Shown: piece after piece, positions 4,610 to 28,085 of the stretch
How positions within the stretch are numbered: the first letter of the stretch is position 1
Layout of the letters: every line of letters starts with the position of its first letter
Assembly (NCBI GenBank): GCA_905182785.1
Contig: CAJJDF010000034.1
Span: 20,953-84,952 of the forward strand
DNA from: an uncultured Flavobacteriales bacterium
GTDB lineage: Bacteria > Bacteroidota > Bacteroidia > Flavobacteriales_D > CAJJDF01
DNA: 64,000 bases
Reading direction: 5' to 3'
Notes under the pieces: model-generated
Told to the model about the DNA's origin: nothing
What the model saw: only the letters and a program-made list of their open reading frames with translations
The model's database searches: none
Program-made: the position numbers and the translations under genes

Positions 4610-4639
4610 TAAGCAGTATGGTTTGGAGTTAGAAATAGA

Positions 4640-5875
4640 TTACTTCTTTTTTCTCTTCACTTTCTTATCAATATCTTCAATCTGCCCCATCAGTTCTTTG
4701 ATACTCAAATTTGTGTCTTCACTAAAATCTATTGTTTTTCTGTATTCATTTTGTTGTAATTCCAATACTTTAATTGGCTTTCCAACAAAATCTTCAATTT
4801 CTTTTAATAAAGGTTTTTCTTCTTTTGCACAAAATGAAACGGCATCTCCTTTCAATCTCCCTCTTCCTGTTCTACCAATCCTGTGTACGTAGTTTTCTGC
4901 TACATCTGGCATGTCATAATTCACAACATAATCCACATTAGCAATATCAATTCCACGAGCCGAAACATCTGTAGCTATCAGTATTTTTATTTCTCCTGTT
5001 CGGAATTTACCCATTACAGAAGTACGGGCTTTTTGTTCCTTATCTCCATGAATTGTTTCGGACACTACTTCCACTCTATCCATTGCTTTTTTAACTCTTT
5101 CTGCTCTTACTTTTGTTCGCACAAACACCAATATTTTCTTATCTGTATTTTCTTTGATTAATCGTTCCAAGAAAAAACGCTTGTCGTCCATTTTGATAAA
5201 AGCAACCGAGTGCTTTATATTTCTAGACACGGGATCTTTAGGTGCTATTTGAATACGAATAGCATTACTACGAATCAAATCGTAGGCAATCTTCTTAATC
5301 TTTTTGTTTATCGTAGCCGAGAAAAACAGAGTTTGTTTCATTTTTGGCATACGAGCAATTACATCTTCAATGTCTTTTATAAAACCTAAATCCAACATGT
5401 GATCGGCTTCATCCAACACCAAAGTATTTACTTTATCCAGATTTACATACTCTTGGTTGTGTAAATCAAACATACGTCCAGGAGTTGTGACCAGTACATC
5501 TACCCCGCTCAATAACCTGTCTATTTGTGATTCTTGCTCCACTCCTCCATACAAGGCAAGTGTTTTTACTTTTGTTCCTTTCCCTAATTTATTAAAAACT
5601 TCGGCAATTTGTTGTGCCAATTCTCTTGTAGGAACCATAACCAAAGCACGAATTACATTTTCTTTGTTGTTCTTTTTTTTCCTTTGAATGTAATTAATAA
5701 TAGGAATTGCAAAGGCAGCAGTCTTACCAGTTCCTGTTTGTGCAATTGCTAATAAATCTTCCCCCTTTACAATGGCAGGAATCGATTTGTATTGGATATC
5801 GGTAGGTTTTTTAAAACCCATCATTTCCAGATTTTTTATAATCTCTGGTGTAAAATTGTATTCGCTAAATTTCAT
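4640..5875 (-). CDS. DEAD-box ATP-dependent RNA helicase (RhlE-like) with a basic C-terminal tail
   Basis: Q-motif region (FKKPTDIQ), Walker A AQTGTGKT, DEAD box (VLDEADHM), SAT, and HRIGRTGR. Confidence 0.92.
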   Translation of the reverse strand: MKFSEYNFTPEIIKNLEMMGFKKPTDIQYKSIPAIVKGEDLLAIAQTGTGKTAAFAIPIINYIQRKKKNNKENVIRALVMVPTRELAQQIAEVFNKLGKGTKVKTLALYGGVEQESQIDRLLSGVDVLVTTPGRMFDLHNQEYVNLDKVNTLVLDEADHMLDLGFIKDIEDVIARMPKMKQTLFFSATINKKIKKIAYDLIRSNAIRIQIAPKDPVSRNIKHSVAFIKMDDKRFFLERLIKENTDKKILVFVRTKVRAERVKKAMDRVEVVSETIHGDKEQKARTSVMGKFRTGEIKILIATDVSARGIDIANVDYVVNYDMPDVAENYVHRIGRTGRGRLKGDAVSFCAKEEKPLLKEIEDFVGKPIKVLELQQNEYRKTIDFSEDTNLSIKELMGQIEDIDKKVKRKKK

Positions 5876-8222: not shown

Positions 8223-8261
8223 GATGTAAAATAATGTTATCCTCTAAATTATAATTGATTG

Positions 8262-8344
8262 TGCCCAGAAAGGGAGTCGAACCCTCACGCACAAAGTACA
8301 CACGCCCCTCAAGCGTGCCTGTCTACCAATTCCAGCATCTGGGC
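8262..8344 (-). tRNA. tRNA-Leu (anticodon GAG), class II with a long variable arm
   Basis: The reverse complement folds as a cloverleaf. Acceptor GCCCAGA pairs with TCTGGGC, the anticodon stem CACGC/GCGTG carries loop TTGAGGG, and the T-arm contains GGTTCGACTCC. CCA is not encoded. Confidence 0.9.
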
Positions 8345-8399: not shown

Positions 8400-9410
8400 A
8401 TGAAAAAAACAATTTTATTATTTTGCATAGCAACAGCAGTTGTTTCTTGCAAACCCGAGGCTCCTAAAGATTACGTAACACTTTCTGGAGCAGTTACAAA
8501 TCCTAACGAAGATTTATCCTTAGAGATAAGAAAAGGAAGAGACTACCTAAAAACAATTACGCTTAATGCGGACGGGACTTTCTCTGACACACTTAAAGTT
8601 CCTGAAGAAGGAAAGTACTACTTGATACACAATAAAGAAAATGCGGCTGTTTATTTGGCGAATGGAGCTGTCACCTCATTCACAATTAATACCGAAGAGT
8701 TTGATGAATCATTAAAATTTGAGGGTGGAAATGCAGATAAAAGCAATTTTTATGTAGCTAATTACATGTTGAACGAAACTAGTTTTGATGAAACTGCTTA
8801 TGAGAGTGAAGTTAATTTCTTAGCGAAATTCAATAAATATAAAAAAGGATATGATGAATTGAAAGCAACTTATAAATTGGATACTGGTTTTTATGCCAAA
8901 CAAGATGCTGAATTGGAACAAATGAGAAGCGGTACCCTTTCTTATATTCAAGAAAAAGAAAACCTAAAGAAGGAACTGACTGGAATACAATCTCCAAGTT
9001 TTGAAGGTTATGAAAATTACAAAGGAGGAACTTCTTCCTTGAGTGATTTTAAAGGGAAATATGTGTATGTAGATGTTTGGGCAACTTGGTGTGGACCTTG
9101 TAAAGCTGAAATTCCATCATTGAAAAAGGTAGAAAAGGCATACGAAGGAAAAAACATAGAATTCTTAAGTATATCAGTAGATGCTTTGAAAAACAAAGAA
9201 GCATGGAAAACAATGATTGCTGAAAAAGAAATGGGAGGTGTTCAATTATTCGCAACTAACAGTTGGGAATCTGATTTTGTAACTAATTATAAAATAAACG
9301 GTATTCCAAGGTTTATTTTGATTGGCCCAGACGGAATAATTATTACTCCAGATGCTCCAAGACCTAGTGATGCTAAGTTAATTGATTTATTTTTTAAGAA
9401 TAATATTTAA
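8400..9410 (+). CDS. TlpA-like thiol:disulfide oxidoreductase lipoprotein (thioredoxin fold)
   Basis: Lipoprotein signal ending VVSC, and a C-terminal thioredoxin domain with WATWCGPC. Confidence 0.85.
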   Translation: MKKTILLFCIATAVVSCKPEAPKDYVTLSGAVTNPNEDLSLEIRKGRDYLKTITLNADGTFSDTLKVPEEGKYYLIHNKENAAVYLANGAVTSFTINTEEFDESLKFEGGNADKSNFYVANYMLNETSFDETAYESEVNFLAKFNKYKKGYDELKATYKLDTGFYAKQDAELEQMRSGTLSYIQEKENLKKELTGIQSPSFEGYENYKGGTSSLSDFKGKYVYVDVWATWCGPCKAEIPSLKKVEKAYEGKNIEFLSISVDALKNKEAWKTMIAEKEMGGVQLFATNSWESDFVTNYKINGIPRFILIGPDGIIITPDAPRPSDAKLIDLFFKNNI

Positions 9411-9520
9411 CTATTAACTTAAATAAGATAAAAAAATAACTTTATAGTAATTTTAGCCCTGTTGCTTATTGTACAAATTACAATAATTATCATTATATTT
9501 GGAATTATAACTTTATAATT

Positions 9521-10906
9521 ATGAAGAATATTTTCATTTTACTACTTGTTATTTATTGCTTCAATTTGCAATCTCAAAATTATCATTTAACTGGTAACGC
9601 AATTGGTACATCTCCCTTTTCCAATTCTTGCCCTTCGGATACTTGCTTTACTCTAACACCTGATCTACTATGGCAACAAGGTGCAGTTTACAATAGTAAA
9701 CTATTTGATTTAACACTTCCTTTTGATGGTACTTTTTGTCTATTTTTAGGGACCAAAGATTTAAACGGAGCAGATGGCTTTGCATTTGTATTGAAAGATA
9801 CAACTATAACAATGCCAGGACTTGCAGGAGGAGGAATTGGATATGGATCTCTCACTCCTTCCATTGCAATAGAATTTGATACATGGGATAATGGTGGAGC
9901 AGATATTCCTGCAGATCATACTAGTTTAAATTACAATGGCAATTCATTTACACCAATAGTTCCTTCTATTCCATTAATACCTTCAGGTGCAAATGTAGAG
10001 GATGGAATGCCTCACACTGCAAGAATTATTTGGACCCCCCACGATACAACCTTATATATGTTTTTTGATAATATATTAAGATTTACACACAGAGTAGACT
10101 TAATTAATACAATATTTGGAGGGGATAAAAAGGTTAATTGGGGATTTACATCTTCTACTGGAGGTTCTTCAAATCTGCAACAAATTTGTTTTCCTGTGAA
10201 ACCCATAGATACCTTTCACGACACAATTTGTCAAGATATTTGTTTAAATTTTAATCAATTAAATTACGATCCAAATTACACTTACAGATGGAATAATGGA
10301 ATTACGGATACTTTACCAATTGTAATTTTGTGTACGAATATTTCAACATCATACTTACTTTTTAAAGAAAGTAAACTGACGAGAATTATAGATACAATAA
10401 CAGTTTTTGTAGAAGTAGAACAAAAACCAATTTTAGACTTAGGAAGGGAAATTATATTATGTGACGGAAGTATTGTTTTAGATGCAACTATTAATAATGG
10501 AAGATTCTATTTATGGAATGATGGGTCTCAGTTAAAAAAATTATCAGTTTCAGACACTGGTTTATATTGGGTAGAAGCTAGAACTAATTATTGTTTGGTA
10601 AGAGATTCTGTTACAATTAAATGTTATGAATTGCCAAACGTATTTTCTCCAAATAGTGATGGTATTAATGATCATTTCTCTCCTTTTAATAAATATGAAT
10701 TCTCTGAAGGAACTTTTTTAGTTTATAATAGATGGGGTTCATTAGTTATGGAGACTAATGATATTAATTTAATTAAAAAAGGATGGGATGGAAATTTTAA
10801 TGGTAAAATATGCTCAGAAGGAGTTTATTATTTCACCTTTTCTTATCAAATAAATAGGAATGATGAAACGATTAATATTAAAGGAGCTTTTCATTTATTT
10901 AGATAA
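9521..10906 (+). CDS. Secreted L-type (legume-like) lectin domain protein with a T9SS type B C-terminal sorting domain
   Basis: Signal peptide; lectin-like motifs ADGFAFVL, GGGIGYG and IAIEFDTWDN; C-terminal PNVFSPNSDGINDHF followed by the RWG...GVYYF pattern of the gliding-motility/CHU_C type domain. Confidence 0.8.
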   Translation: MKNIFILLLVIYCFNLQSQNYHLTGNAIGTSPFSNSCPSDTCFTLTPDLLWQQGAVYNSKLFDLTLPFDGTFCLFLGTKDLNGADGFAFVLKDTTITMPGLAGGGIGYGSLTPSIAIEFDTWDNGGADIPADHTSLNYNGNSFTPIVPSIPLIPSGANVEDGMPHTARIIWTPHDTTLYMFFDNILRFTHRVDLINTIFGGDKKVNWGFTSSTGGSSNLQQICFPVKPIDTFHDTICQDICLNFNQLNYDPNYTYRWNNGITDTLPIVILCTNISTSYLLFKESKLTRIIDTITVFVEVEQKPILDLGREIILCDGSIVLDATINNGRFYLWNDGSQLKKLSVSDTGLYWVEARTNYCLVRDSVTIKCYELPNVFSPNSDGINDHFSPFNKYEFSEGTFLVYNRWGSLVMETNDINLIKKGWDGNFNGKICSEGVYYFTFSYQINRNDETINIKGAFHLFR

Positions 10907-11017
10907 TTCTAACTTAAAATTATTATAAGTCAGTTAACTGACAATCTTATTGTAATTTGTACATTAAGTGTTTTTTTTGTATTATTAGTTAAAATTAAAT
11001 ACTAATAAAACAATATT

Positions 11018-11809
11018 ATGAAAAAAAAATACTTTACTGGGCTATTCTTAATGATGACGTCCATAGCTTTAACACAAAATGTTCCTGTAGATTTTGAAAC
11101 TGTTGGGCATGGTGCATCTTGGAGTTGGTCTGTGTTTGAAAACACAACAAATCCAGCATTACAAATTGTAGTAAACCCTAATCCATCTGGGATTAACACG
11201 TCTCCTACTGTAGCCAAATTTGTTGCATTACAAACTGGTAATCCTTGGGCTGGTTGTGAAACTATGCACGGTTCTGATATTGGTACATTTACTATTACTG
11301 CATCCAATGCAATTATTAGAATTATGGTTTACAAGACAAAGATTAGTGATGTAGGAATTAAATTAGTTACAAATTCAGCTTGGTCTACAGGTGAAATTAA
11401 AGTAGCAAATACATTAATTAATCAATGGGAGCAATTAACATTTGATTTCACTTCTCATATTGGTAATGGAAGAACTTACGATCAATTAGTTGTATTTCCA
11501 GATTTTGTAGCAAGAGCTGCTGATGACACTATCTATTTTGATAATGTATTTGGACAAGCTGCTTATTTAAGTACTCCTGAATTATCTATAGATGATGTTT
11601 CTATTTACCCAAATCCTACAAATGGATTAGTTAAAATAGAATCTGAAACTTTTATTAATGAAATAGAATTGTACAATATGGAAGGGAAACTTCTTTTTAC
11701 TGAAAGAAATTCATCTACAATTGATCTAAGTAGTTTTGATAATGGAGTTTATATTATCAGAACTAGACAAAATGATATAGTATCTAATCATAGAGTAATA
11801 AAAAATTAG
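11018..11809 (+). CDS. Secreted CBM-like beta-sandwich protein with a T9SS type A (Por_Secre_tail) sorting domain
   Basis: Signal peptide. The C-terminus SIYPNPTNGLVKIE...GVYIIRT... is a typical type A CTD. Confidence 0.8.
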   Translation: MKKKYFTGLFLMMTSIALTQNVPVDFETVGHGASWSWSVFENTTNPALQIVVNPNPSGINTSPTVAKFVALQTGNPWAGCETMHGSDIGTFTITASNAIIRIMVYKTKISDVGIKLVTNSAWSTGEIKVANTLINQWEQLTFDFTSHIGNGRTYDQLVVFPDFVARAADDTIYFDNVFGQAAYLSTPELSIDDVSIYPNPTNGLVKIESETFINEIELYNMEGKLLFTERNSSTIDLSSFDNGVYIIRTRQNDIVSNHRVIKN

Positions 11810-11842
11810 TTGTGCATTAGATTAAAAAACTAATTTAAAAAA

Positions 11843-11875
11843 GCCATTTCAATTTATATTGAAATGGCTTTTTTA
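11843..11875 (+). terminator. Rho-independent terminator after 11018..11809
   Basis: Stem GCCATTTCAA (11843-11852) pairs with TTGAAATGGC (11859-11868), followed by a T run. Confidence 0.75.
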
Positions 11876-11930
11876 TTTTTTACAAATCTCTAATATCAAT
11901 GAATTAATTAAATAGAAAATATAATGCATT

Positions 11931-11967
11931 AAAAAAGCCTTCTAAACTAATGCTTAGAAGGCTTTTT
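11931..11967. terminator. Bidirectional hairpin, likely terminator of tRNA-Lys copy 1
   Basis: Stem GCCTTCTAA (11937-11945) pairs with TTAGAAGGC (11954-11962), flanked by A6 and T5 runs. Confidence 0.65.
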
Positions 11968-11975
11968 GGCTGTTG

Positions 11976-12048
11976 TGATCCAGCTGGGATTCGAACCCAG
12001 GACCCACGCCTTAAAAGGGCGTTGCTCTACCAACTGAGCTACTGAATC
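11976..12048 (-). tRNA. tRNA-Lys (anticodon UUU), copy 1
   Basis: The reverse complement reads GATTCAG-TA-GCTC-AGTTGGTA-GAGC-A-ACGCC-CTTTTAA-GGCGT-GGGTC-CTGGG-TTCGAAT-CCCAG-CTGGATC-A, a canonical cloverleaf. Confidence 0.95.
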
Positions 12049-12060
12049 GCTAACGGTTTG

Positions 12061-12090
12061 CAAATATATAAATCTCTTTATTAAAAGCAA
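12061..12090 (-). promoter_or_regulatory. Bacteroidota sigma-A type promoter for tRNA-Lys copy 1
   Basis: On the minus strand, TTG (12088-12090), a 19-nt spacer, then TATATTTG (12061-12068). This matches the -33 TTG / -7 TAnnTTTG consensus and sits 12 nt upstream of the mature tRNA 5' end. Confidence 0.6.
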
Positions 12091-12315
12091 TGATTTTGAT
12101 AGAATAACTTGAAAGAAAATTAAACTTCTTTACTTTAGCTCTAAATTGAAATCATTTTAACTTAATTTTGAGAAAGGTTTATGGCTATTTTAATTTAGTT
12201 TTCATTCCTTTTTAATTTGAAAAACAGAAGGTTAATTATTTCATAACATCCTAAATTATTAGGAGAAATAGTCAAAATAAGGAGGTCTATCATTCTTCTT
12301 ATTTCCTTTAAAATA

Positions 12316-13320
12316 TTATTTATTGTAGGTTAAAAGAATATCACCTGATCTAGAAAAAGAAGAATCTTTACTTTTCATGGTAATAATTACATTTATAATA
12401 TCTCCAGGGTCTGTTGCAAATGATGCTAAATTAAGAGTTGTATATGTCCATAATATATTAGTCACATTTACAAGAGGAGTTATACTAGTTCCCTGTGTAA
12501 CGTTTTGAACCTCTACTGATATAGCTCCATTAACTTCACTCTGGTTTGCAATTGTGGTTATTCCCCAAGATTTATAATCTAGAGGGACTTTTAATCTAAG
12601 TTTTACATCATAATATTGATCTGTTGAACTTGGAGAATACCATTCGTAATGGTTCATATTTTGTATTGGACTATGATTAGATGTCATATAACCAAAATGT
12701 TCTCCTGCGGTTCCGTTAATAGTATCGAAAACAGCACCTGCATATTCTGCAGCAAAGTAAAGCTCTCCTTTTGGTAAAAAAAGTGAGTCTAAATCTAAAT
12801 ATCTAACTACACCTGTAGCTGGGTCTACAATAAGTAAGGCCGTATCATTTGCTTGTGCAGGTCGTAAACCTCCAATACGAATAGCGTCTGAACCTGCAGC
12901 TGGGACTACGTGTAAATTATTAAGAGGATTTAATACACCAATCCCAACATTTCCTTGAGTAAAAATATTATCATTGATATTATCTGCGCCAATACTTCCT
13001 CCTACTTCATGCCAACCATTTTCTTCATTAAGAGTAACATAAATTGTATCCTCCCCTTCTACTATAATAAGAGTATCACCTGTTATAAAAATAGTATCAA
13101 TCTTTTCATCTATTACATCTCCTATTTTTGCTAAAATACCAGTTGTTAAACCTATATAATAGTCATTATTTACTGTGTCTAGGTACATATCTCCTTCTCC
13201 TGCAGTTTTATTCGTATTAATTGCACTAATTTGTAATGAAGTATAATATTGTGAAAATACCATAGATGGTACAACAAATAAAATAACAAATAAAATAACC
13301 TTTCCTTTACTAATTCTCAT
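12316..13320 (-). CDS. Secreted hypothetical protein (surface/adhesin-like), partner gene in the ice-binding cassette
   Basis: Signal peptide ending VFSQ. Contains EGDMYLDTVNNDYYIG and GNVGIGVLNPLNNLHV, short motifs of the kind seen in Bacteroidota surface and tail-fibre-like proteins. No confident family assignment. Confidence 0.7.
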   Translation of the reverse strand: MRISKGKVILFVILFVVPSMVFSQYYTSLQISAINTNKTAGEGDMYLDTVNNDYYIGLTTGILAKIGDVIDEKIDTIFITGDTLIIVEGEDTIYVTLNEENGWHEVGGSIGADNINDNIFTQGNVGIGVLNPLNNLHVVPAAGSDAIRIGGLRPAQANDTALLIVDPATGVVRYLDLDSLFLPKGELYFAAEYAGAVFDTINGTAGEHFGYMTSNHSPIQNMNHYEWYSPSSTDQYYDVKLRLKVPLDYKSWGITTIANQSEVNGAISVEVQNVTQGTSITPLVNVTNILWTYTTLNLASFATDPGDIINVIITMKSKDSSFSRSGDILLTYNK

Positions 13321-13391
13321 ATATCTATTATTTAATAAATTTTTAATCTGTTATTCATTAAAGAAACGAACTATCATTAATGATTTTTAAT

Positions 13392-15494
13392 CTATAGGTT
13401 TTGAAGCCAAAAATAGGTTTTTTCCTTCCCATTAAAAAAGAACTTTCCGTGTCGCATCCTATCAAATTGAATATACATAAATGTGAAATATTCACCATCT
13501 GCTAGGTTTATATCACCTTGCCAAACACCATTAGTCTTATCCATTTTAGATAAGCGTAATTCTCCAGTTGAAAAATCTCCATCTTTATCTTCATCAATAA
13601 CTAAATAAAGCGGTTTGTCTACTCCCATTGGTGGGGTTGGTAAATCTGCACTGTCAATTTGAACCAACAATTCGCCCACATCATTATAGTTCTCTTCGAC
13701 TAACCATTCTCTTTTTAATCGATAAATGATGTTAAATCCTGCTTGAGTTTCACTATTAACCCAAGTATTTTTAGAACTGTCATTATTTGCCCACATTAGG
13801 GTAATTTTATCATTAGTAAATGGAGTTAGGTGTGCTAAATTGTTTACAGCAATATTCATTAAACCTATGGTTACCATGCCATCTGGATTAACGCTTTTAC
13901 TTTGTCTTTGATCTAAACCGTAAAAATCATCTTGCCCAATACCGGTAATGTCATGTATATAGGTTGTTGAAACTGAATCTTCCCAAGCTGATGTACTGTC
14001 AGACAAAGTATAATCGGTTCCCACTGTACCGTCATTGTCATTGTCGTTTATTTGGTCTAATGTTATCCCATATTTAATTGCTAAATATGATTCTATTATA
14101 TTTATTTCGTTTAGTAAAAATGTATTTCCTAAAACGTGTTCAACATTCATAATTTCAGCAATATTACCATCATAGTGTCGGTTAATATTATCTGAACCAA
14201 CAAAGGTCGTATCTCCATTCCCTTTTACAGTTCCACCGGATTTTGTTGATATTTCTAATCCGTTTCTAGAAATACTTTCGGCAGTATTGGATTGAATAAA
14301 TGACCATAAATAAGGTGTATTGAGTGTTCCTCCCCAAGCAACAGATTGTTCATTTTGTGTACCTGCGTCAAAATAAGATTTTCCATCTCCCGAAACATCA
14401 ACAACTCCAAAGCTATTAACACCTGATAAGGGCTCTTCCAATAAATATTGGTTTTTTATTGATTTAGGTATAGAAACTACAAATGATGTTTCGTGTAAAT
14501 TAAAACCTGTGATAATAGCCCCTCCTGGTTTTATCATTTTAGTAGTGGATCCATCAAATAATAAGGATGGATTGAAATTTATGGAATTAGATACATAAGT
14601 AGGCTCTTCTCCTGAAATAGTATACAAAGAATCATTTGGTAGATCTTGATTTTTCCATTTACTAACTAAAGGAGAGCCAACTAATCCATCGTCAGCTTTT
14701 ACCCAAAACCTTCTGAATACTTTTACACATGGAACTGGAGCTGTTATTGTAACTTGGTATACAGATACCGCTCCACTATTAGTAAGCATTCTTCCTTCTA
14801 CTGTTCCTCCAGCACCTATTGAAACTGCTCCTGCCCCAGAAATAAGCGTTCCTTTCATTTGTGTATTTGTCGCCATTGCTATAGCACCTCCAGATGCCCA
14901 AAACACATTACAAGGTAAAGCTCCGTTGATCAATACTATATTGGCACCTGCTCCTGTGGTAAATGCTCCTCCAAATTTAAATATAAAAACTGAACTGAAA
15001 TCTCCTTGGCCATCTAGTATTAGAGTTCCTGCCGCTGATCCAGCTCCTGCTTCGGCATATACTCCTGGCAAAACTGTTTCACCTCCACCAAATGCAGGTG
15101 TGTGACCAAAAATTGTTTGAGGAATAACAAGTAATTGATTGTATAGGTCTTGTACATCAATTACACCCTGAGCAGTTAAGGCATTAGCCGAATCTATTGT
15201 TCCTGTAACATTAGTTGGGGATCCAAATCCAGTTATTGCACCATTATTTGTACCTATATTTCCTCCGATAAAAGACGTTGCAGTATTACTCAATGCCCCA
15301 GAAGATGTAAATAGGGCAAACTGTTCCGTTACTCCTAAATTTAGTGACTGGGCAGAAATGTTAATTGAAAAAAATAATACTATAATAGGAGTTAATATTA
15401 TTACCGAAAAATGTATTTTAAATTTCGGTATACAATATTTAATGGTGTCTATATTTTTTTTAATTAGACTATTAAGTAGATTGGTTTCCTTCAT
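13392..15494 (-). CDS. DUF3494 ice-binding-family domain fused to a roughly 440-aa C-terminal region (LamG-like and Asp-rich segments)
   Basis: Residues about 50-255 follow the DUF3494 pattern: LGVTEQFALFTSSGALSNT...GNIGTNNGAITGF, VLPGVY, LDGQGD..SVFIFKFGGAFTT, INGALPCNVFW, and GRMLTNSGAVS...VTITAP. Confidence 0.85.
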   Translation of the reverse strand: MKETNLLNSLIKKNIDTIKYCIPKFKIHFSVIILTPIIVLFFSINISAQSLNLGVTEQFALFTSSGALSNTATSFIGGNIGTNNGAITGFGSPTNVTGTIDSANALTAQGVIDVQDLYNQLLVIPQTIFGHTPAFGGGETVLPGVYAEAGAGSAAGTLILDGQGDFSSVFIFKFGGAFTTGAGANIVLINGALPCNVFWASGGAIAMATNTQMKGTLISGAGAVSIGAGGTVEGRMLTNSGAVSVYQVTITAPVPCVKVFRRFWVKADDGLVGSPLVSKWKNQDLPNDSLYTISGEEPTYVSNSINFNPSLLFDGSTTKMIKPGGAIITGFNLHETSFVVSIPKSIKNQYLLEEPLSGVNSFGVVDVSGDGKSYFDAGTQNEQSVAWGGTLNTPYLWSFIQSNTAESISRNGLEISTKSGGTVKGNGDTTFVGSDNINRHYDGNIAEIMNVEHVLGNTFLLNEINIIESYLAIKYGITLDQINDNDNDGTVGTDYTLSDSTSAWEDSVSTTYIHDITGIGQDDFYGLDQRQSKSVNPDGMVTIGLMNIAVNNLAHLTPFTNDKITLMWANNDSSKNTWVNSETQAGFNIIYRLKREWLVEENYNDVGELLVQIDSADLPTPPMGVDKPLYLVIDEDKDGDFSTGELRLSKMDKTNGVWQGDINLADGEYFTFMYIQFDRMRHGKFFFNGKEKTYFWLQNL

Positions 15495-16013
15495 TTTATT
15501 TATTACTAAATTTATTTATGATGTAAAATATATGAAAAATCATCTCCAGCACTTTTATTCGCGGAAGGTTCCAACTAGCTTAGGATTATGTAAGTTCATC
15601 CAACAAAAAAATGAAGGTAGTCTAAAATACTTCTAAAGTACTATTATAGTTAGTTTTCTTTCTAATTATTAGGATTTTTAATCCTAATAAAACCAAGGTA
15701 TTCAAGGATGTTTTGGAGTCTATTTTCTAAATAAATTGATTACATCGTTTGTTTTAAAATTTAGTTAATCTTCTTTCAAAATAATACATTAAAGTTGTTG
15801 TTTAAAAAAAACAACTTTAATTGTTTAAAAGGGAATGAATTAAAATTGTATATAATATCTAATTATAGTGTTTTGCTAACACTGTTTTACAGTCTTGTAA
15901 GTAGTGTTAAATTATTCATCTATTTCTAGAATTATATTATTTAGTGCAAAAAGAATACTTTTAAAGTATAATTAATTAGTCTTTAAAATTGTTAAAAAAA
16001 GGCTTTAAACAAC

Positions 16014-16039
16014 AAAACCTCCTAGTAATAGGAGGTTTT
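16014..16039. terminator. Bidirectional hairpin, likely terminator of tRNA-Lys copy 2
   Basis: Stem AACCTCCT (16016-16023) pairs with AGGAGGTT (16030-16037), flanked by A and T runs. Confidence 0.65.
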
Positions 16040-16051
16040 GAATTGCTGTTG

Positions 16052-16124
16052 TGATCCAGCTGGGATTCGAACCCAGGACCCACGCCTTAAAAGGGCGTTG
16101 CTCTACCAACTGAGCTACTGAATC
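16052..16124 (-). tRNA. tRNA-Lys (anticodon UUU), copy 2
   Basis: Sequence is identical to copy 1. Confidence 0.95.
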
Positions 16125-16136
16125 GCTAACGGTTTG

Positions 16137-16166
16137 CAAATATATAAACCCCTTTATTAAAAGCAA
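16137..16166 (-). promoter_or_regulatory. Bacteroidota sigma-A type promoter for tRNA-Lys copy 2
   Basis: Same TTG-N19-TATATTTG arrangement as copy 1, with the -7 box at 16137-16144. Confidence 0.6.
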
Positions 16167-16183
16167 ACATATTGAGTAGTTTT

Positions 16184-17056
16184 TTAATTATTTAATAGTA
16201 TTAATAATTTTTCATTTACTTTTTTATTTACAGGAACCAAAGGAAGGCGTACGTTATTGCCCATAATATCCATTATTTTTAAAATTTCTTTTACTCCTCC
16301 AGGATTTCCATCTGCAAAGATTGCTTCAATTAATTCTAATAATTGATAGTGTGATTTTCTTGATGACATGAAATCTCCGTCTAGTGCTTTGGCAACTAAA
16401 TTCTTTGTAACTACTGGGTGAGAGTTTGCTATTACAGAGATTAATCCCTCTGCACCAGTTGATATCATTGGTAAAGTAAGTGCATCATCTCCTGAGATCA
16501 CAAGAAAGTCTTGTGGTTTTTTATTTATAATATGCATTACTTGACCTAAGTCTCCTGAGGCTTCTTTGATTGCAATTACATTTTTGAATTCTTCTGCAAT
16601 TCTAATTGTTGTTTCGGCTGTCATGTTGGAAGCTGTTCTTCCTGGTACGTTATAAAGTATAATGTCATGATTCATGTTCTTTGACAGAAACTTATAATGT
16701 TGATATATTCCTTCTTGACTTGGCTTGCTATAATAAGGACTTGCCGAAAGTATTGCAGAGACATCATCTAATTTAAAGTAATTATAATCATCTACCATTT
16801 TTATTGTATCGTTACCTCCTATTCCAAATACAATTGGTAACCTTTTGTTGTTAATTTTAATTACAAAATCTAATATTTCTTGTTTTTCTATCATAGAAAG
16901 GGTAGCAGCTTCTCCGGTTGTTCCCATCACAACTAAATAATCTACCCCTCCATCAATTAAGTAGTTGGTTAGTTTTTCTAATGCTGGATAGTCTATTTCT
17001 TTATTGACCTTGAAAGGAGTAACCATGGCAACTCCTAGTCCTTTTAAGTTGTTCAT
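16184..17056 (-). CDS. dapA: 4-hydroxy-tetrahydrodipicolinate synthase
   Basis: Shows GVAMVTPF, the GTTGEA motif, and the full-length DapA/NAL family pattern (290 aa). Confidence 0.92.
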   Translation of the reverse strand: MNNLKGLGVAMVTPFKVNKEIDYPALEKLTNYLIDGGVDYLVVMGTTGEAATLSMIEKQEILDFVIKINNKRLPIVFGIGGNDTIKMVDDYNYFKLDDVSAILSASPYYSKPSQEGIYQHYKFLSKNMNHDIILYNVPGRTASNMTAETTIRIAEEFKNVIAIKEASGDLGQVMHIINKKPQDFLVISGDDALTLPMISTGAEGLISVIANSHPVVTKNLVAKALDGDFMSSRKSHYQLLELIEAIFADGNPGGVKEILKIMDIMGNNVRLPLVPVNKKVNEKLLILLNN

Positions 17057-17658: not shown

Positions 17659-20325
<2,667 letters not shown>

Positions 20326-25279: not shown

Positions 25280-26656
25280 TTAAAATCTTGTTGCATTAAA
25301 AAAAATAACCAATTCCTTAATTGTATAACTGTTTTGGTCTCCAGTCTCCATATTTTTTAATGTTATTGAATTATTTGCCAATTCATTTTCTCCCACTAAA
25401 GCTACAAATGGAATGTTTTTGTTGTTGGCATAAGTCATTTGTTTTTTCATCTTAGAATTATCTGGATAAATTTCCGAAGGTATTCCATGAGCTCTTAATT
25501 CTTTCAACCATTTCATTGATTGTTTTGCTTCTAATTTTCCAAAATTTGCAAACATAAGCTGAGTAGAGGATAATAGTTCTTTAGGGAATAAATCTAATTC
25601 TTCAAGCACGTCAAAAATCCTATCAGCACCAAAGGAAACTCCAACTCCAGATAAGTCTTTCATTCCAAAAATACTAGTTAAGTCGTCATAACGACCACCT
25701 CCACAAATACTTCCAATGTTCACATTATTGGCTTTTACTTCAAATATTGCTCCTGTGTAATAGTTTAATCCTCTAGCAAGCGAAGGGTCAAATTCTAGTT
25801 TTGCTTTGTCTAATCCTAATGATTTTACCATTTCTAGCACTTCTGTAAGTTCTTCAATTCCTTTTACTCCAATTTCTGAAGAAGAAACTATTAAACTTAC
25901 TGCTTCCAATAAGTTTTCATTAGATCCCGAAATTGTTAAAATTGGTTTTAGTTTTTCAATAGCAGATTCGGAAACTTCTTTCTCTCTTAATTCCTTTACA
26001 ACTCCTTCCTCTCCTATTTTATCTAATTTATCAATAGCCACAGTAATAGGAATCAATTTGTCTGATTCTCCTACTACTTCTACCAGCCCAGAAAGGATTT
26101 TTCTGTTATTTATTTTAATTGTAAAATCCTCTAGTTTTAAGCTAGATAATACTTTATCAAATATCTGAATCAATTCTACTTCATACAATAAAGATTCGCT
26201 TCCAACCACATCTACATCACATTGGTAAAATTCTCTGTATCTACCTCTTTGTGGTCTGTCAGCTCTCCAAACAGGTTGAATCTGATATCTTTTGAACGGT
26301 AAATCTATTTCATTTCTGTTTTGAACTACGAATCGTGCAAAGGGAACAGTCAGGTCATAACGCAATGCTTTTTCTACTATAGAATTAGCAAAACGTATAG
26401 AATTATTATCAGTAAAAGCTTCTTTGTTTGATTTATTAAGAAATTCTCCAGAATTAAGCACTTTAAAAATTAGTCTATCCCCTTCTTCTCCATATTTACC
26501 CATTAGAGTTTCAGTCTTCTCCATGGTTGGAGTTTCTATAGGTAAGTAACCAAAAGTTTGAAAAACTGATTTAATAGTATCAAAAATATAGTTTCTTTTT
26601 ACCATTACTTGTGGTAAAAAATCCCTTGTTCCTTTTGGTATGGATGGTTTAGACAT
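25280..26656 (-). CDS. hisS: Histidine--tRNA ligase
   Basis: Class II aaRS motifs ([21 protein letters not shown]) and a C-terminal anticodon-binding domain. Confidence 0.95.
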
Positions 26657-26879
26657 TATTTTTGTTTAGAATTATCTTGTTCTAACAAAAATAGGAATAG
26701 TTAAGAGAAAGGAGTAATATTTGTCAATTAAAATGATTTAAACAAGGTTTGTAAATCTGTTCTCGATAATTGAAAATAAAAAACAGCAGAAATGTTGATA
26801 TAATATAGCTCTGTAAAACATTAACTTTTATCTTTCAGTCAAAAGTAAGTTTACAAAAAAGTCTGATATCGGAATTTAT

Positions 26880-28085
26880 TTACTCAAAATCCTCATACAA
26901 TAAATAATTACTTCTCATTAATTTGTATTCTTTTAATCCATCTTCCCATGAATTATGAATTTCTTCCTCAGATTTCCCTTCCTTAATTTGACTTCTTAAT
27001 GTGCTAGTTCCAGACAATTTATCAAAAAATGAAGTTCTAGTAATAAAATCTTTTCCTTTTGTTTTTTCGTTCATTCCCAATAACCATTGCAAATACATTT
27101 TTTTAGTATTTCTTATGTATAACAAACCAAAAAGACTCAAGTTGTATCCGTTACATTTTACGTCCTTGTATTTTGGGTTTTTAGAACCAATATTAGGTGA
27201 TGGTATGAATGAATAAGAGGTTTCTAAAACATAAGGTGAGCCAATTATTTGAAATGGAAAATCCGTTCCTCTTCCAACACTTACTGAGGTTCCTTCGAAA
27301 AAACAAATAGATGGATACAAATAAACCGAAGACATATTAGGTAAATTAGGAGAAGGTGCAATTGGTAATTTGTAATAATCTTTGTGAGAATAATTAATAC
27401 ATTCTATCACTTCCAATTCGCATTTAACTTTTCCTTTTAACCAGCCTTCTCCATTTATCATTTTTGCCAATTCCCCTACAGTTAATCCATGAACCACAGG
27501 AATTGGATGCATTCCAACAAATGATTTGTGTTTTTCTTCTAAAATTGGTCCATCTACATAAAATCCATTAGGATTGGGGCGATCCAATATTAATACCTTT
27601 TTTTTGTTTTCTGCACATGCTTCCATTATGTAGTGCATAGTCGAAATGTAAGTGTAAAACCTTGCTCCAACATCTTGTATGTCAAAAATAATAATATCGA
27701 TATCAGCTAATTGTACTGCAGTAGGTTTTCTGTTTGTTCCGTACAATGAGACTAAAGGTAAGCCTGTTTTTACATCCATGGATGATTTTACATGTTCCCC
27801 TGCAGATGCATTTCCTCTAAATCCATGCTCGGGTGAAAATACTTTTTTTACATTAATACCCAACGACAAAAGTGAATCGACCAAATGAGTATTTTTAATT
27901 GATGAAGTCTGATTTGCTACAATTGCAACTCTTTTTCCTTTTAATTTATTTAGGTAGAAATCTACTCTTTCAGCTCCAGTAATTATTGATGTATCGTAAG
28001 ATACTTTGAATAACATTTCTTGTGATTTCCCTTGTAAAAATGCAAATTGTAAAAAAGAAAAAAGAAGGAGAGTACGAATCATCAT
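26880..28085 (-). CDS. DUF1343 family protein (NamZ-like exo-beta-N-acetylmuramidase)
   Basis: Signal peptide, then VAIVANQTS...FSPEHGFRG..., typical of DUF1343/YzbB/NamZ. Confidence 0.75.
   Translation of the reverse strand: MMIRTLLLFSFLQFAFLQGKSQEMLFKVSYDTSIITGAERVDFYLNKLKGKRVAIVANQTSSIKNTHLVDSLLSLGINVKKVFSPEHGFRGNASAGEHVKSSMDVKTGLPLVSLYGTNRKPTAVQLADIDIIIFDIQDVGARFYTYISTMHYIMEACAENKKKVLILDRPNPNGFYVDGPILEEKHKSFVGMHPIPVVHGLTVGELAKMINGEGWLKGKVKCELEVIECINYSHKDYYKLPIAPSPNLPNMSSVYLYPSICFFEGTSVSVGRGTDFPFQIIGSPYVLETSYSFIPSPNIGSKNPKYKDVKCNGYNLSLFGLLYIRNTKKMYLQWLLGMNEKTKGKDFITRTSFFDKLSGTSTLRSQIKEGKSEEEIHNSWEDGLKEYKLMRSNYLLYEDFE

Follow-up and report, generated by a model that had tools for sequence, protein, structure and literature searches.

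A strain-variable putative ice-binding operon between tandem tRNA-Lys units in an uncultured marine flavobacterium

Additive flexible genomic islands at tRNA hotspots, of the type known from Alteromonas and Prochlorococcus, usually come with integrases or consist of larger cassettes. MpIBP of Marinomonas primoryensis, a protein that binds ice, is a giant RTX (repeats-in-toxin) adhesin that leaves the cell by type I secretion. In Psychroflexus torquis, a flavobacterium of sea ice, tRNA-flanked islands carry putative ice-binding protein (IBP) genes, with one such region situated between two tRNA-Val genes (PMC3914696), and work on Arctic metagenomes has documented IBP genes in tandem, shuffling of domains and horizontal transfer of the ice-binding domain DUF3494 (PMC9957290). 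We analysed a stretch of 64,000 nt (the window) from contig CAJJDF010000034.1 of an uncultured, polar marine member of the Flavobacteriaceae with about 31% GC, whose source metagenome-assembled genomes (MAGs) bear the names 'Flavobacteriales bacterium' or 'Urechidicola sp.', and focused on a cassette of an IBP gene and a partner gene that lies between two promoter-tRNA-Lys(UUU) units. Among contigs of the same species, zero, one or two IBP genes are present between the same flanks. We propose, with a probability of roughly 0.7, that an older tandem tRNA-Lys pair houses a long-resident, strain-variable islet, which is lost by internal deletion and encodes a putative ice-binding operon.

Layout of the locus and its natural alleles

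The cassette is flanked by dapA (16184-17056) and by a gene for a protein with a C-terminal sorting domain (CTD) of the type IX secretion system (T9SS; 11018-11809). Between these, the following features are found, K1 being the dapA-proximal promoter-tRNA unit and K2 the other one.

16045-16166, minus strand: K1 unit, with TTG at 16166-16164, the -7 box TATATTTG at 16144-16137, a 12-nt leader and tRNA-Lys(UUU) at 16052-16124
16013-16040, minus strand: terminator hairpin 1, 3' of K1, CAAAACCTCCTATTACTAGGAGGTTTTG followed by a T-rich tail
15495-16012, minus strand: AT-rich IBP leader, lacking a canonical TAnnTTTG box and an Rfam match
13392-15494, minus strand: IBP-DUF8202 gene, 700 aa, Pfam Ice_binding at 117 bits
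12316-13320, minus strand: partner gene, 334 aa, no Pfam family
12091-12315, minus strand: trailer, from the partner stop codon to the K2 promoter, kept from 12287 downwards in the cassette-free allele
11969-12090, minus strand: K2 unit, with TTG at 12090-12088, the -7 box TATATTTG at 12068-12061 and tRNA-Lys(UUU) at 11976-12048
11932-11967, minus strand: terminator hairpin 2, 3' of K2, AAAAAGCCUUCUAAGC...GUUUAGAAGGCUUUUU

Conspecific contigs were recovered by exact-protein look-ups, their flanks being 98-99.9% identical at the nucleotide level and their DapA protein 100% identical. This sampling comprises a few dozen metagenome contigs, and assemblers break at repeats. An initial annotation, made from the window alone, had regarded the cassette as accessory and its presence as possibly variable between strains; contigs with identical DapA do display such variation. 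Allele A, with one cassette, is represented by the window and at least 12 contigs (L001-L003, L007, L010, L011 and L030; partially L004-L006, L023, L025 and L046), with K1 and K2 spaced by 4073-4077 nt. Allele B, without cassette, is represented by at least nine contigs (L008, L009, L012, L024 and L042-L045; partially L029), in which both K1 and K2 are kept, 721 or 725 nt apart. Hairpin 1 is still present in it, as are about 650 nt of leader and trailer, with about 370 nt left of the IBP leader and about 200 nt of the partner trailer. What is missing are the IBP gene with 148 nt upstream and the partner gene with 28 nt downstream. Allele C, with two IBP genes, was found in three Joint Genome Institute (JGI) samples (L017-L019). 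The segment and the junctions are given below, a slash marking the join.

12288-15642, no strand: segment of 3,355 bp missing from allele B, with TACC in its place
Allele A, left junction: CTAACTATAAT / AGTACTTTAG
Allele A, right junction: GAATGATA / GACCTCC
Allele B junction: CTATAAT-TACC-GACCTCC
15666-15690, minus strand: perfect 11-bp hairpin UUAUUAGGAUU-AAA-AAUCCUAAUAA, on the retained side of the left deletion junction, some 25 nt from it
Allele C junction: CAAAATCATTGC / ATTTAATAAAGGGG

All allele B contigs have one junction in common, from which it follows that the deletion arose once. The junction shows no more than a microhomology of AAT and a weak similarity that is rich in AT, with neither a target-site duplication nor a long repeat. 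The deletion occurs on several flanking haplotypes: the hairpin at 15666-15690, which is degenerate in most cassette-free alleles, is intact in L042, where the deletion is thus paired with an A-type hairpin. Since one deletion is found on different haplotypes, the population recombines, and homologous recombination in the flanks shuffles the alleles. The polarity could in principle be reversed, with the 721-nt cassette-free spacer being ancestral within the species and the 3,355 bp representing a recent insertion. Such an insertion would agree with the very low diversity of the cassette among allele A contigs, which amounts to 0-2 single-nucleotide polymorphisms (SNPs) per 3.3 kb even between strains that are about 1% apart elsewhere, and the junction is free of repeats or target-site duplications whichever way it is read. 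However, the tract of low diversity extends over about 9 kb around the cassette and is common to alleles A and B. Moreover, the flanks that allele B retains are IBP leader and partner trailer, both of which run on into the genes, with conserved sequence through either junction position, in the window, in the sister species (L013) and in the two-IBP lineage (L017). In addition, the homology upstream of a distant IBP gene (L020) crosses the left junction by about 30 nt, and the sister species carries the cassette at the same site. We therefore consider allele B a deletion and not a pre-insertion site, and a recent insertion highly improbable.

The gain is of a different kind. Allele C, whose flank on the T9SS side is 98% identical to the window, has the order IBP1-partner-trailer-K(mid)-hairpin 1-leader-IBP2-trailer-K-hairpin 2-T9SS gene. 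The unit in the middle, K(mid), is a hybrid, in which a K2-type upstream flank (…CAAAATCATTGC) is followed by the K1-type promoter variant (ATTTAATAAAGGGG…) and hairpin 1. L017 and L018 span the K(mid) join, while the sequence of L019 begins within K(mid). A chimera produced by de Bruijn assembly could be ruled out, the join sharing only TTGC and recurring in two independent samples; the partner genes of L017 and L018 are 99.6% identical, so these contigs are not one sequence. IBP2 is 87% identical in nucleotides to the IBP gene of the window and 86% to that of the sister species, with a leader that is colinear with the sister-species leader and not with that of the window, and it has no partner gene, yet its trailer is the same as that of cassette 1. 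The cassette of the C lineage is further from the window (94.8% nucleotide identity for the partner gene, 90% for the 3' end of IBP1) than its flank. Together with the near absence of diversity among allele A cassettes, this divergence indicates that old cassette alleles were exchanged by recombination and did not simply descend vertically within the species. From the hybrid K2/K1 unit in the gain allele, it appears that the units of about 122 nt provide portable homology on which unequal or inter-lineage recombination can act.

The repeats thus bound the observed gain and not the observed loss. This bears on the mechanism favoured initially, in which a mobile accessory cassette would be cleanly gained and lost by RecA between the 122-nt repeats, with an empty site of one tRNA and perhaps a circle as products. 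In its favour are the length of the repeats, their identity of about 98% and K(mid), which demonstrates that the units recombine; the reciprocal product of that event would be a single-tRNA allele. However, none of the contigs spanning the site has just one tRNA-Lys on the way from dapA to the T9SS gene, and the synteny check suggested at the outset returned no empty site that consists of one hybrid repeat. All empty alleles, in at least nine contigs, have two units and one internal junction, the sister species has a syntenic cassette with core-like divergence, and the composition of the cassette is native. Clean excision between the repeats is therefore unlikely; what stands of the proposal is the repeats as a substrate for recombination, to which the hybrid K(mid) of the two-IBP allele testifies, while the 3,355-bp loss lies inside the spacer. 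A single-unit allele would be recognizable by ACTCAATATGTTTGC on the dapA side, one tRNA unit and then CAACAGCCAAAAAGCCTTCTAAGC.

Age of the tRNA pair and of the islet

A repeat search of the window returned a 131-nt direct repeat (11969-12099 and 16045-16175) of 96% identity, which is far beyond chance in AT-rich DNA, although identity of the tRNA bodies is expected for two gene copies of one isoacceptor. Each unit contains the Bacteroidetes-type -7 box, a TTG 19 nt upstream of it (at 16166 and 12090) and the 12-nt leader CAAACCGTTAGC directly before the tRNA-Lys. ARAGORN located tRNA-Lys(ttt) at 11975-12048 and 16051-16124, both on the minus strand, and Rfam assigned both as tRNA-Lys of 73 nt with 74.2 bits at 11976-12048 and 16052-16124. 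The two post-tRNA hairpins are unlike in sequence, with folding energies of -19.1 and -21.9 kcal/mol (z = -5.8 and -6.4), and the K1 hairpin was additionally scored as an intrinsic terminator. The initial annotation had described two near-identical promoter plus tRNA-Lys(UUU) units with different hairpins, only two minus-strand genes between them, and no integrase, transposase or partial-tRNA scar. The first point is borne out by repeat search, ARAGORN, Rfam and folding and the second by the list of open reading frames (ORFs), which holds two credible genes between the repeats, both on the minus strand. For the third, domain scans detected no integrase or transposase domain in the cassette ORFs or the flanking genes scanned, and no partial tRNA-Lys copy was found in the 64-kb window at up to three mismatches.

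Within the repeat core (11969-12090 versus 16045-16166) mismatches occur at two positions only. These are paralogue-specific, with GGGG in K1 and GAGA in K2 (promoter-spacer variants AAAGGGGTTT and AAAGAGATTT, respectively), and they are kept in the window, in the sister species (L013) and in a third species (L031). Paralogue-specific variants common to three species imply that the tandem tRNA-Lys pair pre-dates the window species. L031, one of three loci returned by a metagenome-contig search, is 82.6% identical in nucleotides to the window and 82.5% to L013, with DapA being 82% identical. Its order is dapA-K1-hairpin 2-(promoter)-K2-hairpin 2, with 211 nt between the tRNA starts and no cassette, and compared to it the inserted DNA begins 7-9 nt past the 3' end of the K1 tRNA. 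The earlier idea that the cassette was trapped between duplicated tRNA units fits this cassette-free K1-K2 tandem. In the sister species (L013-L016), the order dapA-K1-IBP-partner-K2 is found at the same site, with a core flank of 85.4% nucleotide identity and DapA of 83% identity. Its cassette is 83.2% identical to that of the window, the IBP and partner genes each about 86%. The divergence of the cassette is therefore about that of the core, which fits co-descent.

Composition leads to the same view. The codon-usage distances of the two cassette genes (0.108 and 0.124) compare to a window mean of 0.128 (sd 0.029), and their GC contents (0.349 and 0.320) to 0.317 for the window (sd 0.027), within 1.2 sd. 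A recent foreign origin of the cassette is thus not supported, codon usage and GC being native and an ortholog with core-like divergence being present in the sister species. Of the observations that would speak against an accessory cassette altogether, the same arrangement in a relative and a core-like composition were indeed made, but the variability at strain level is real.

We propose a model in which a unit of promoter, tRNA and hairpin 2 would have been duplicated first, giving the tandem pair before the species arose. A segment of hairpin 1, leader, IBP gene, partner gene and trailer would then have been inserted 7-9 nt past the K1 3' end in the common ancestor of the window species and L013, and the operon would since have behaved as a strain-variable islet. 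The natural alleles themselves show loss by the internal deletion of 3,355 bp, of single origin, which spares both tRNAs and is now present on several flanking haplotypes; gain by joining of a second IBP module via a hybrid K2/K1 unit; and exchange by recombination with diverged cassette alleles. The order of events, with the tRNA pair first and the operon as a long-term resident, is suggested by the comparison of species and alleles.

The inserted DNA begins at a position that is classical for tRNA-targeting integrases, and the locus could accordingly be the decayed remnant of an integrase-mediated island at the tRNA-Lys 3' end. The most distant full-length IBP-DUF8202 gene (within 1-10783 of L020; 70% amino acid identity) would be in line with such an origin: it has no partner gene and no tRNA, and is accompanied by a Fic gene and by fragments of a DDE transposase and of a type I restriction-modification system (EcoR124_C), a setting that looks like a mobile or defence-island context. 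Against this, neither the two ORFs nor the dapA and T9SS-CTD flanks include a tyrosine or serine recombinase gene at an island end. The direct repeat is a whole promoter and tRNA unit and not an att-like repeat of a 3' tRNA fragment, of which none was found, and the composition does not deviate from the host core. K2 moreover is marked by a conserved promoter variant that is particular to it, and is found in L031, where there is no cassette, and viral contigs searched with the IBP protein gave no match. We regard an integrase remnant as very unlikely.

Several points nevertheless weigh against our model of an older tRNA pair with a long-resident islet. The L031 contig stops within the K2 terminator, so a cassette further downstream is possible, and loss of the cassette in L031 is an alternative to later insertion; the polarity of the original insertion rests on three species. 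No contig links dapA to the two-IBP allele, the full structure of allele C being pieced together, and the K2/K1 switch in K(mid) is located at the extreme left edge of homology, which is unusual for a simple crossover and could alternatively reflect later gene conversion. A rare single-tRNA allele could be missed where assemblers break at repeats. Finally, no promoter of the IBP gene was found, a scan of its leader for TAnnTTTG having returned no canonical -7 box.

For synteny beyond these species, the best DapA match in genome-contig searches (single protein and two-species alignment) is only 49% identical, so that no isolate or species-representative genome of the lineage is usable. In the distant Flavobacteriaceae MAG contig with this identity (L032, 6401-6845), dapA is followed by a tRNA cluster of Thr-Tyr-Gly-Thr and not by tRNA-Lys; a tRNA gene 3' of dapA may be a wider feature of the family.

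Encoded proteins, leader and neighbouring variation

The IBP fusion protein of 700 aa contains the DUF3494 ice-binding domain at aa 64-251 (PF11999, 117.1 bits versus a cut-off of 28.7) and is homologous to solved IBPs, the closest structure by sequence being IBPv (5UYT, E = 1.9e-68 over aa 49-257), with 4NU2 at E = 1.6e-8. The remainder, at about aa 255-700, is DUF8202, taken from precomputed Pfam matches on identical proteins, since the Pfam and NCBIfam libraries scanned carry no model of this domain. An N-terminal hydrophobic signal or anchor and an …INISAQ motif are kept in all four full-length homologues. A T9SS sorting domain (TIGR04183/PF18962, PF13585) was matched neither in the IBP fusion nor in the partner, even at E <= 1, so that neither has the mark of T9SS cargo, while most related Bacteroidota IBPs recovered bear it. 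The IBP plus DUF8202 architecture forms only four clusters at 90% identity among 5.8 billion proteins. DUF8202 itself occurs widely in Bacteroidota, frequently in proteins that also have LamG and T9SS CTDs, and no mention of it was found in the literature searched. Its AlphaFold model (predicted local distance difference test, pLDDT, 89.7; predicted template modelling score, pTM, 0.90) displays a LamG/ConA-like jelly roll and a second beta domain, with botulinum neurotoxin receptor-binding domains and the carbohydrate-binding domain 4 of the arabinanase AbnA as top Foldseek matches.

The partner has an N-terminal signal-like segment and matches no Pfam or NCBIfam family; in a word-indexed search, its family comprises only 9 clusters, and its AlphaFold model is poor (pLDDT 52). 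By profile search, its middle segment matches a repeat of giant multi-repeat proteins and its C-terminal part of about 150 aa is found again at the very end of larger proteins. Distant partner homologues adjoin NHL/Big_9-DUF8202 proteins (L021, L022), one DUF8202 part being 65% identical to that of the window. Partner homologues beside other DUF8202 proteins indicate that the conserved unit is a variable head with DUF8202, together with the partner, the IBP domain representing a head swap, and the partner appears always to accompany the CTD-less DUF8202 subfamily. Judging from domains and models, the predicted role of the operon is most likely that of a surface-displayed ice-binding or ice-adhesion complex.

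Within the IBP leader, the region of about 15495-15669 is conserved 5' of every IBP-DUF8202 gene found, including the one in the unrelated context of L020. It comprises a block GCTAGTTGGAACCTTCCGCGAATAAAAGTGCTGGAGATGAT at about 15540-15600, some 50-90 nt 5' of the IBP start codon, which is conserved before IBP-DUF8202 genes in three lineages and, to some extent, in L020, and which may constitute a candidate site for a regulator or an alternative sigma factor. The middle of the leader, about 300 nt (15680-15958), is specific to the species and has no counterpart in the leaders of the sister species or of IBP2, which are colinear with each other; extra palindromes are located at 15788-15821 and 15959-15988. 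At gathering and permissive thresholds, Rfam recognized the two tRNAs alone, without a credible match in the 550-nt leader, and a sigma-70 promoter scan is uninformative for Bacteroidota. Read-through from K1 as the source of IBP transcription was judged unlikely, since a strong terminator follows K1 and the IBP upstream region is conserved in L020, where no tRNA is present. MITE-like copies (miniature inverted-repeat transposable elements) of leader or trailer were not found elsewhere in the window.

Further variation was observed around the islet. T9SS sorting domains are present in both neighbouring products on the K2 side (11018-11809 and 9521-10906), and the other large window genes scanned are ordinary housekeeping genes, e.g. 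those for ClpB, TopA, LigA, HisS and FtsH. A hairpin at 11836-11875, which lies between K2 and the T9SS-CTD gene and is a terminator in both directions, has a 39-nt frame of 74% identity (TTAAAAAAGCC…GGCTTTTT) in common with the hairpin at 11929-11967, 94 nt apart. ARAGORN further placed a tRNA-Leu(GAG) at 8261-8344, which is not in the Rfam gathering-threshold list. In the sister species (L014, 4524-9816, compared to window 8400-11809), the T9SS-CTD and lectin genes 3' of K2 are absent, the tRNA-Leu is in opposite orientation and a T9SS-CTD gene is found elsewhere, which identifies the stretch from K1 to tRNA-Leu as a variable zone of secreted or surface proteins. At 10016-10515, inside the lectin/CHU_C gene (9521-10906), contigs of the species with about 99% identity elsewhere differ by 65 mismatches in 500 nt; this diverged lectin allele is present in the cassette-bearing L007 as well as in the cassette-free L008, L009 and L012 and is thus unlinked to the IBP indel, in agreement with shuffling of the alleles by recombination. 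An import tract tied to the absence of the cassette was rejected on this basis, the elevated flank divergence being a hypervariable lectin-gene segment in both allele classes. At 26511-27000, from the hisS-namZ intergenic region into the namZ 3' end, 84 mismatches in 462 nt plus indels separate the window from L008, L009 and L012, with only about 1-2% difference in the segments beside it. L009 and L012 also contain an extra gene for a 332-aa protein with a T9SS CTD (Por_Secre_tail; 19182-20180), which is absent from the window (at about 4610-4640) and sits between DEAD-box helicase and radical-SAM/SPASM genes, a second small presence/absence islet.

Comparison with described islands and ice-binding systems

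The locus provides a sequence-resolved case of a cold-adaptation gene whose copy number is 0, 1 or 2 within one wild marine population. With exact loss and gain junctions at hand, allele frequencies can be read from metagenomes and compared with sea-ice exposure. The data also correct an attractive but unsupported mechanism, clean excision between tRNA repeats, and highlight the rare combination of DUF3494-DUF8202 and a dedicated partner without T9SS sorting domain. Going further, we speculate that the tRNA units might serve as integrase-free 'homology handles', by which IBP modules of diverged lineages are stacked, swapped and dosed at a single chromosomal site, with products that form a CTD-independent ice-adhesion complex on the surface, of a kind not described before. 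This is doubtful at present; if true, polar flavobacterial populations would tune their IBP copy number by means of a tRNA-punctuated cassette array.

As in the islands of P. torquis (PMC3914696), putative ice-binding genes reside here in strain- or species-variable islands of polar Flavobacteriaceae. The present islet, however, is only about 4 kb long, with neither transposase, integrase and pseudogenes nor atypical composition, and its flanking tRNAs are complete, separately promoted and probably older than the cassette. With the flexible islands of the Alteromonas/Prochlorococcus type it has in common the fixed site, variable genes, core flanks and alleles shuffled by recombination, but the duplicated unit of promoter, tRNA and terminator is the sole recognizable recombination substrate and loss occurred by an illegitimate internal deletion. 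Integron arrays resemble it in that short modules are stacked at one site in varying number, whereas the present modules bring their own upstream regions and are separated by functional tRNA genes; no IntI integrase was found in the window genes scanned, and the boundary hairpins were not compared with an attC model.

With regard to the protein, the N-terminal domain matches PF11999 as well as IBPv of Flavobacteriaceae 3519-10 (5UYT) and FfIBP (4NU2), while most Bacteroidota IBPs recovered carry a T9SS CTD, in place of which the present protein has DUF8202, no CTD and a dedicated partner gene. The concept, in which an ice-binding domain is joined to modules that bind ligands or sugars so that cells are held at the ice, is the same as for MpIBP, although folds and size are unrelated and a role as adhesin is suggested here by the lectin-like fold of DUF8202 only. 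A flexible islet at a tRNA site is therefore of a known kind, whereas the module of IBP-DUF8202 and partner that it carries is rare and uncharacterised.

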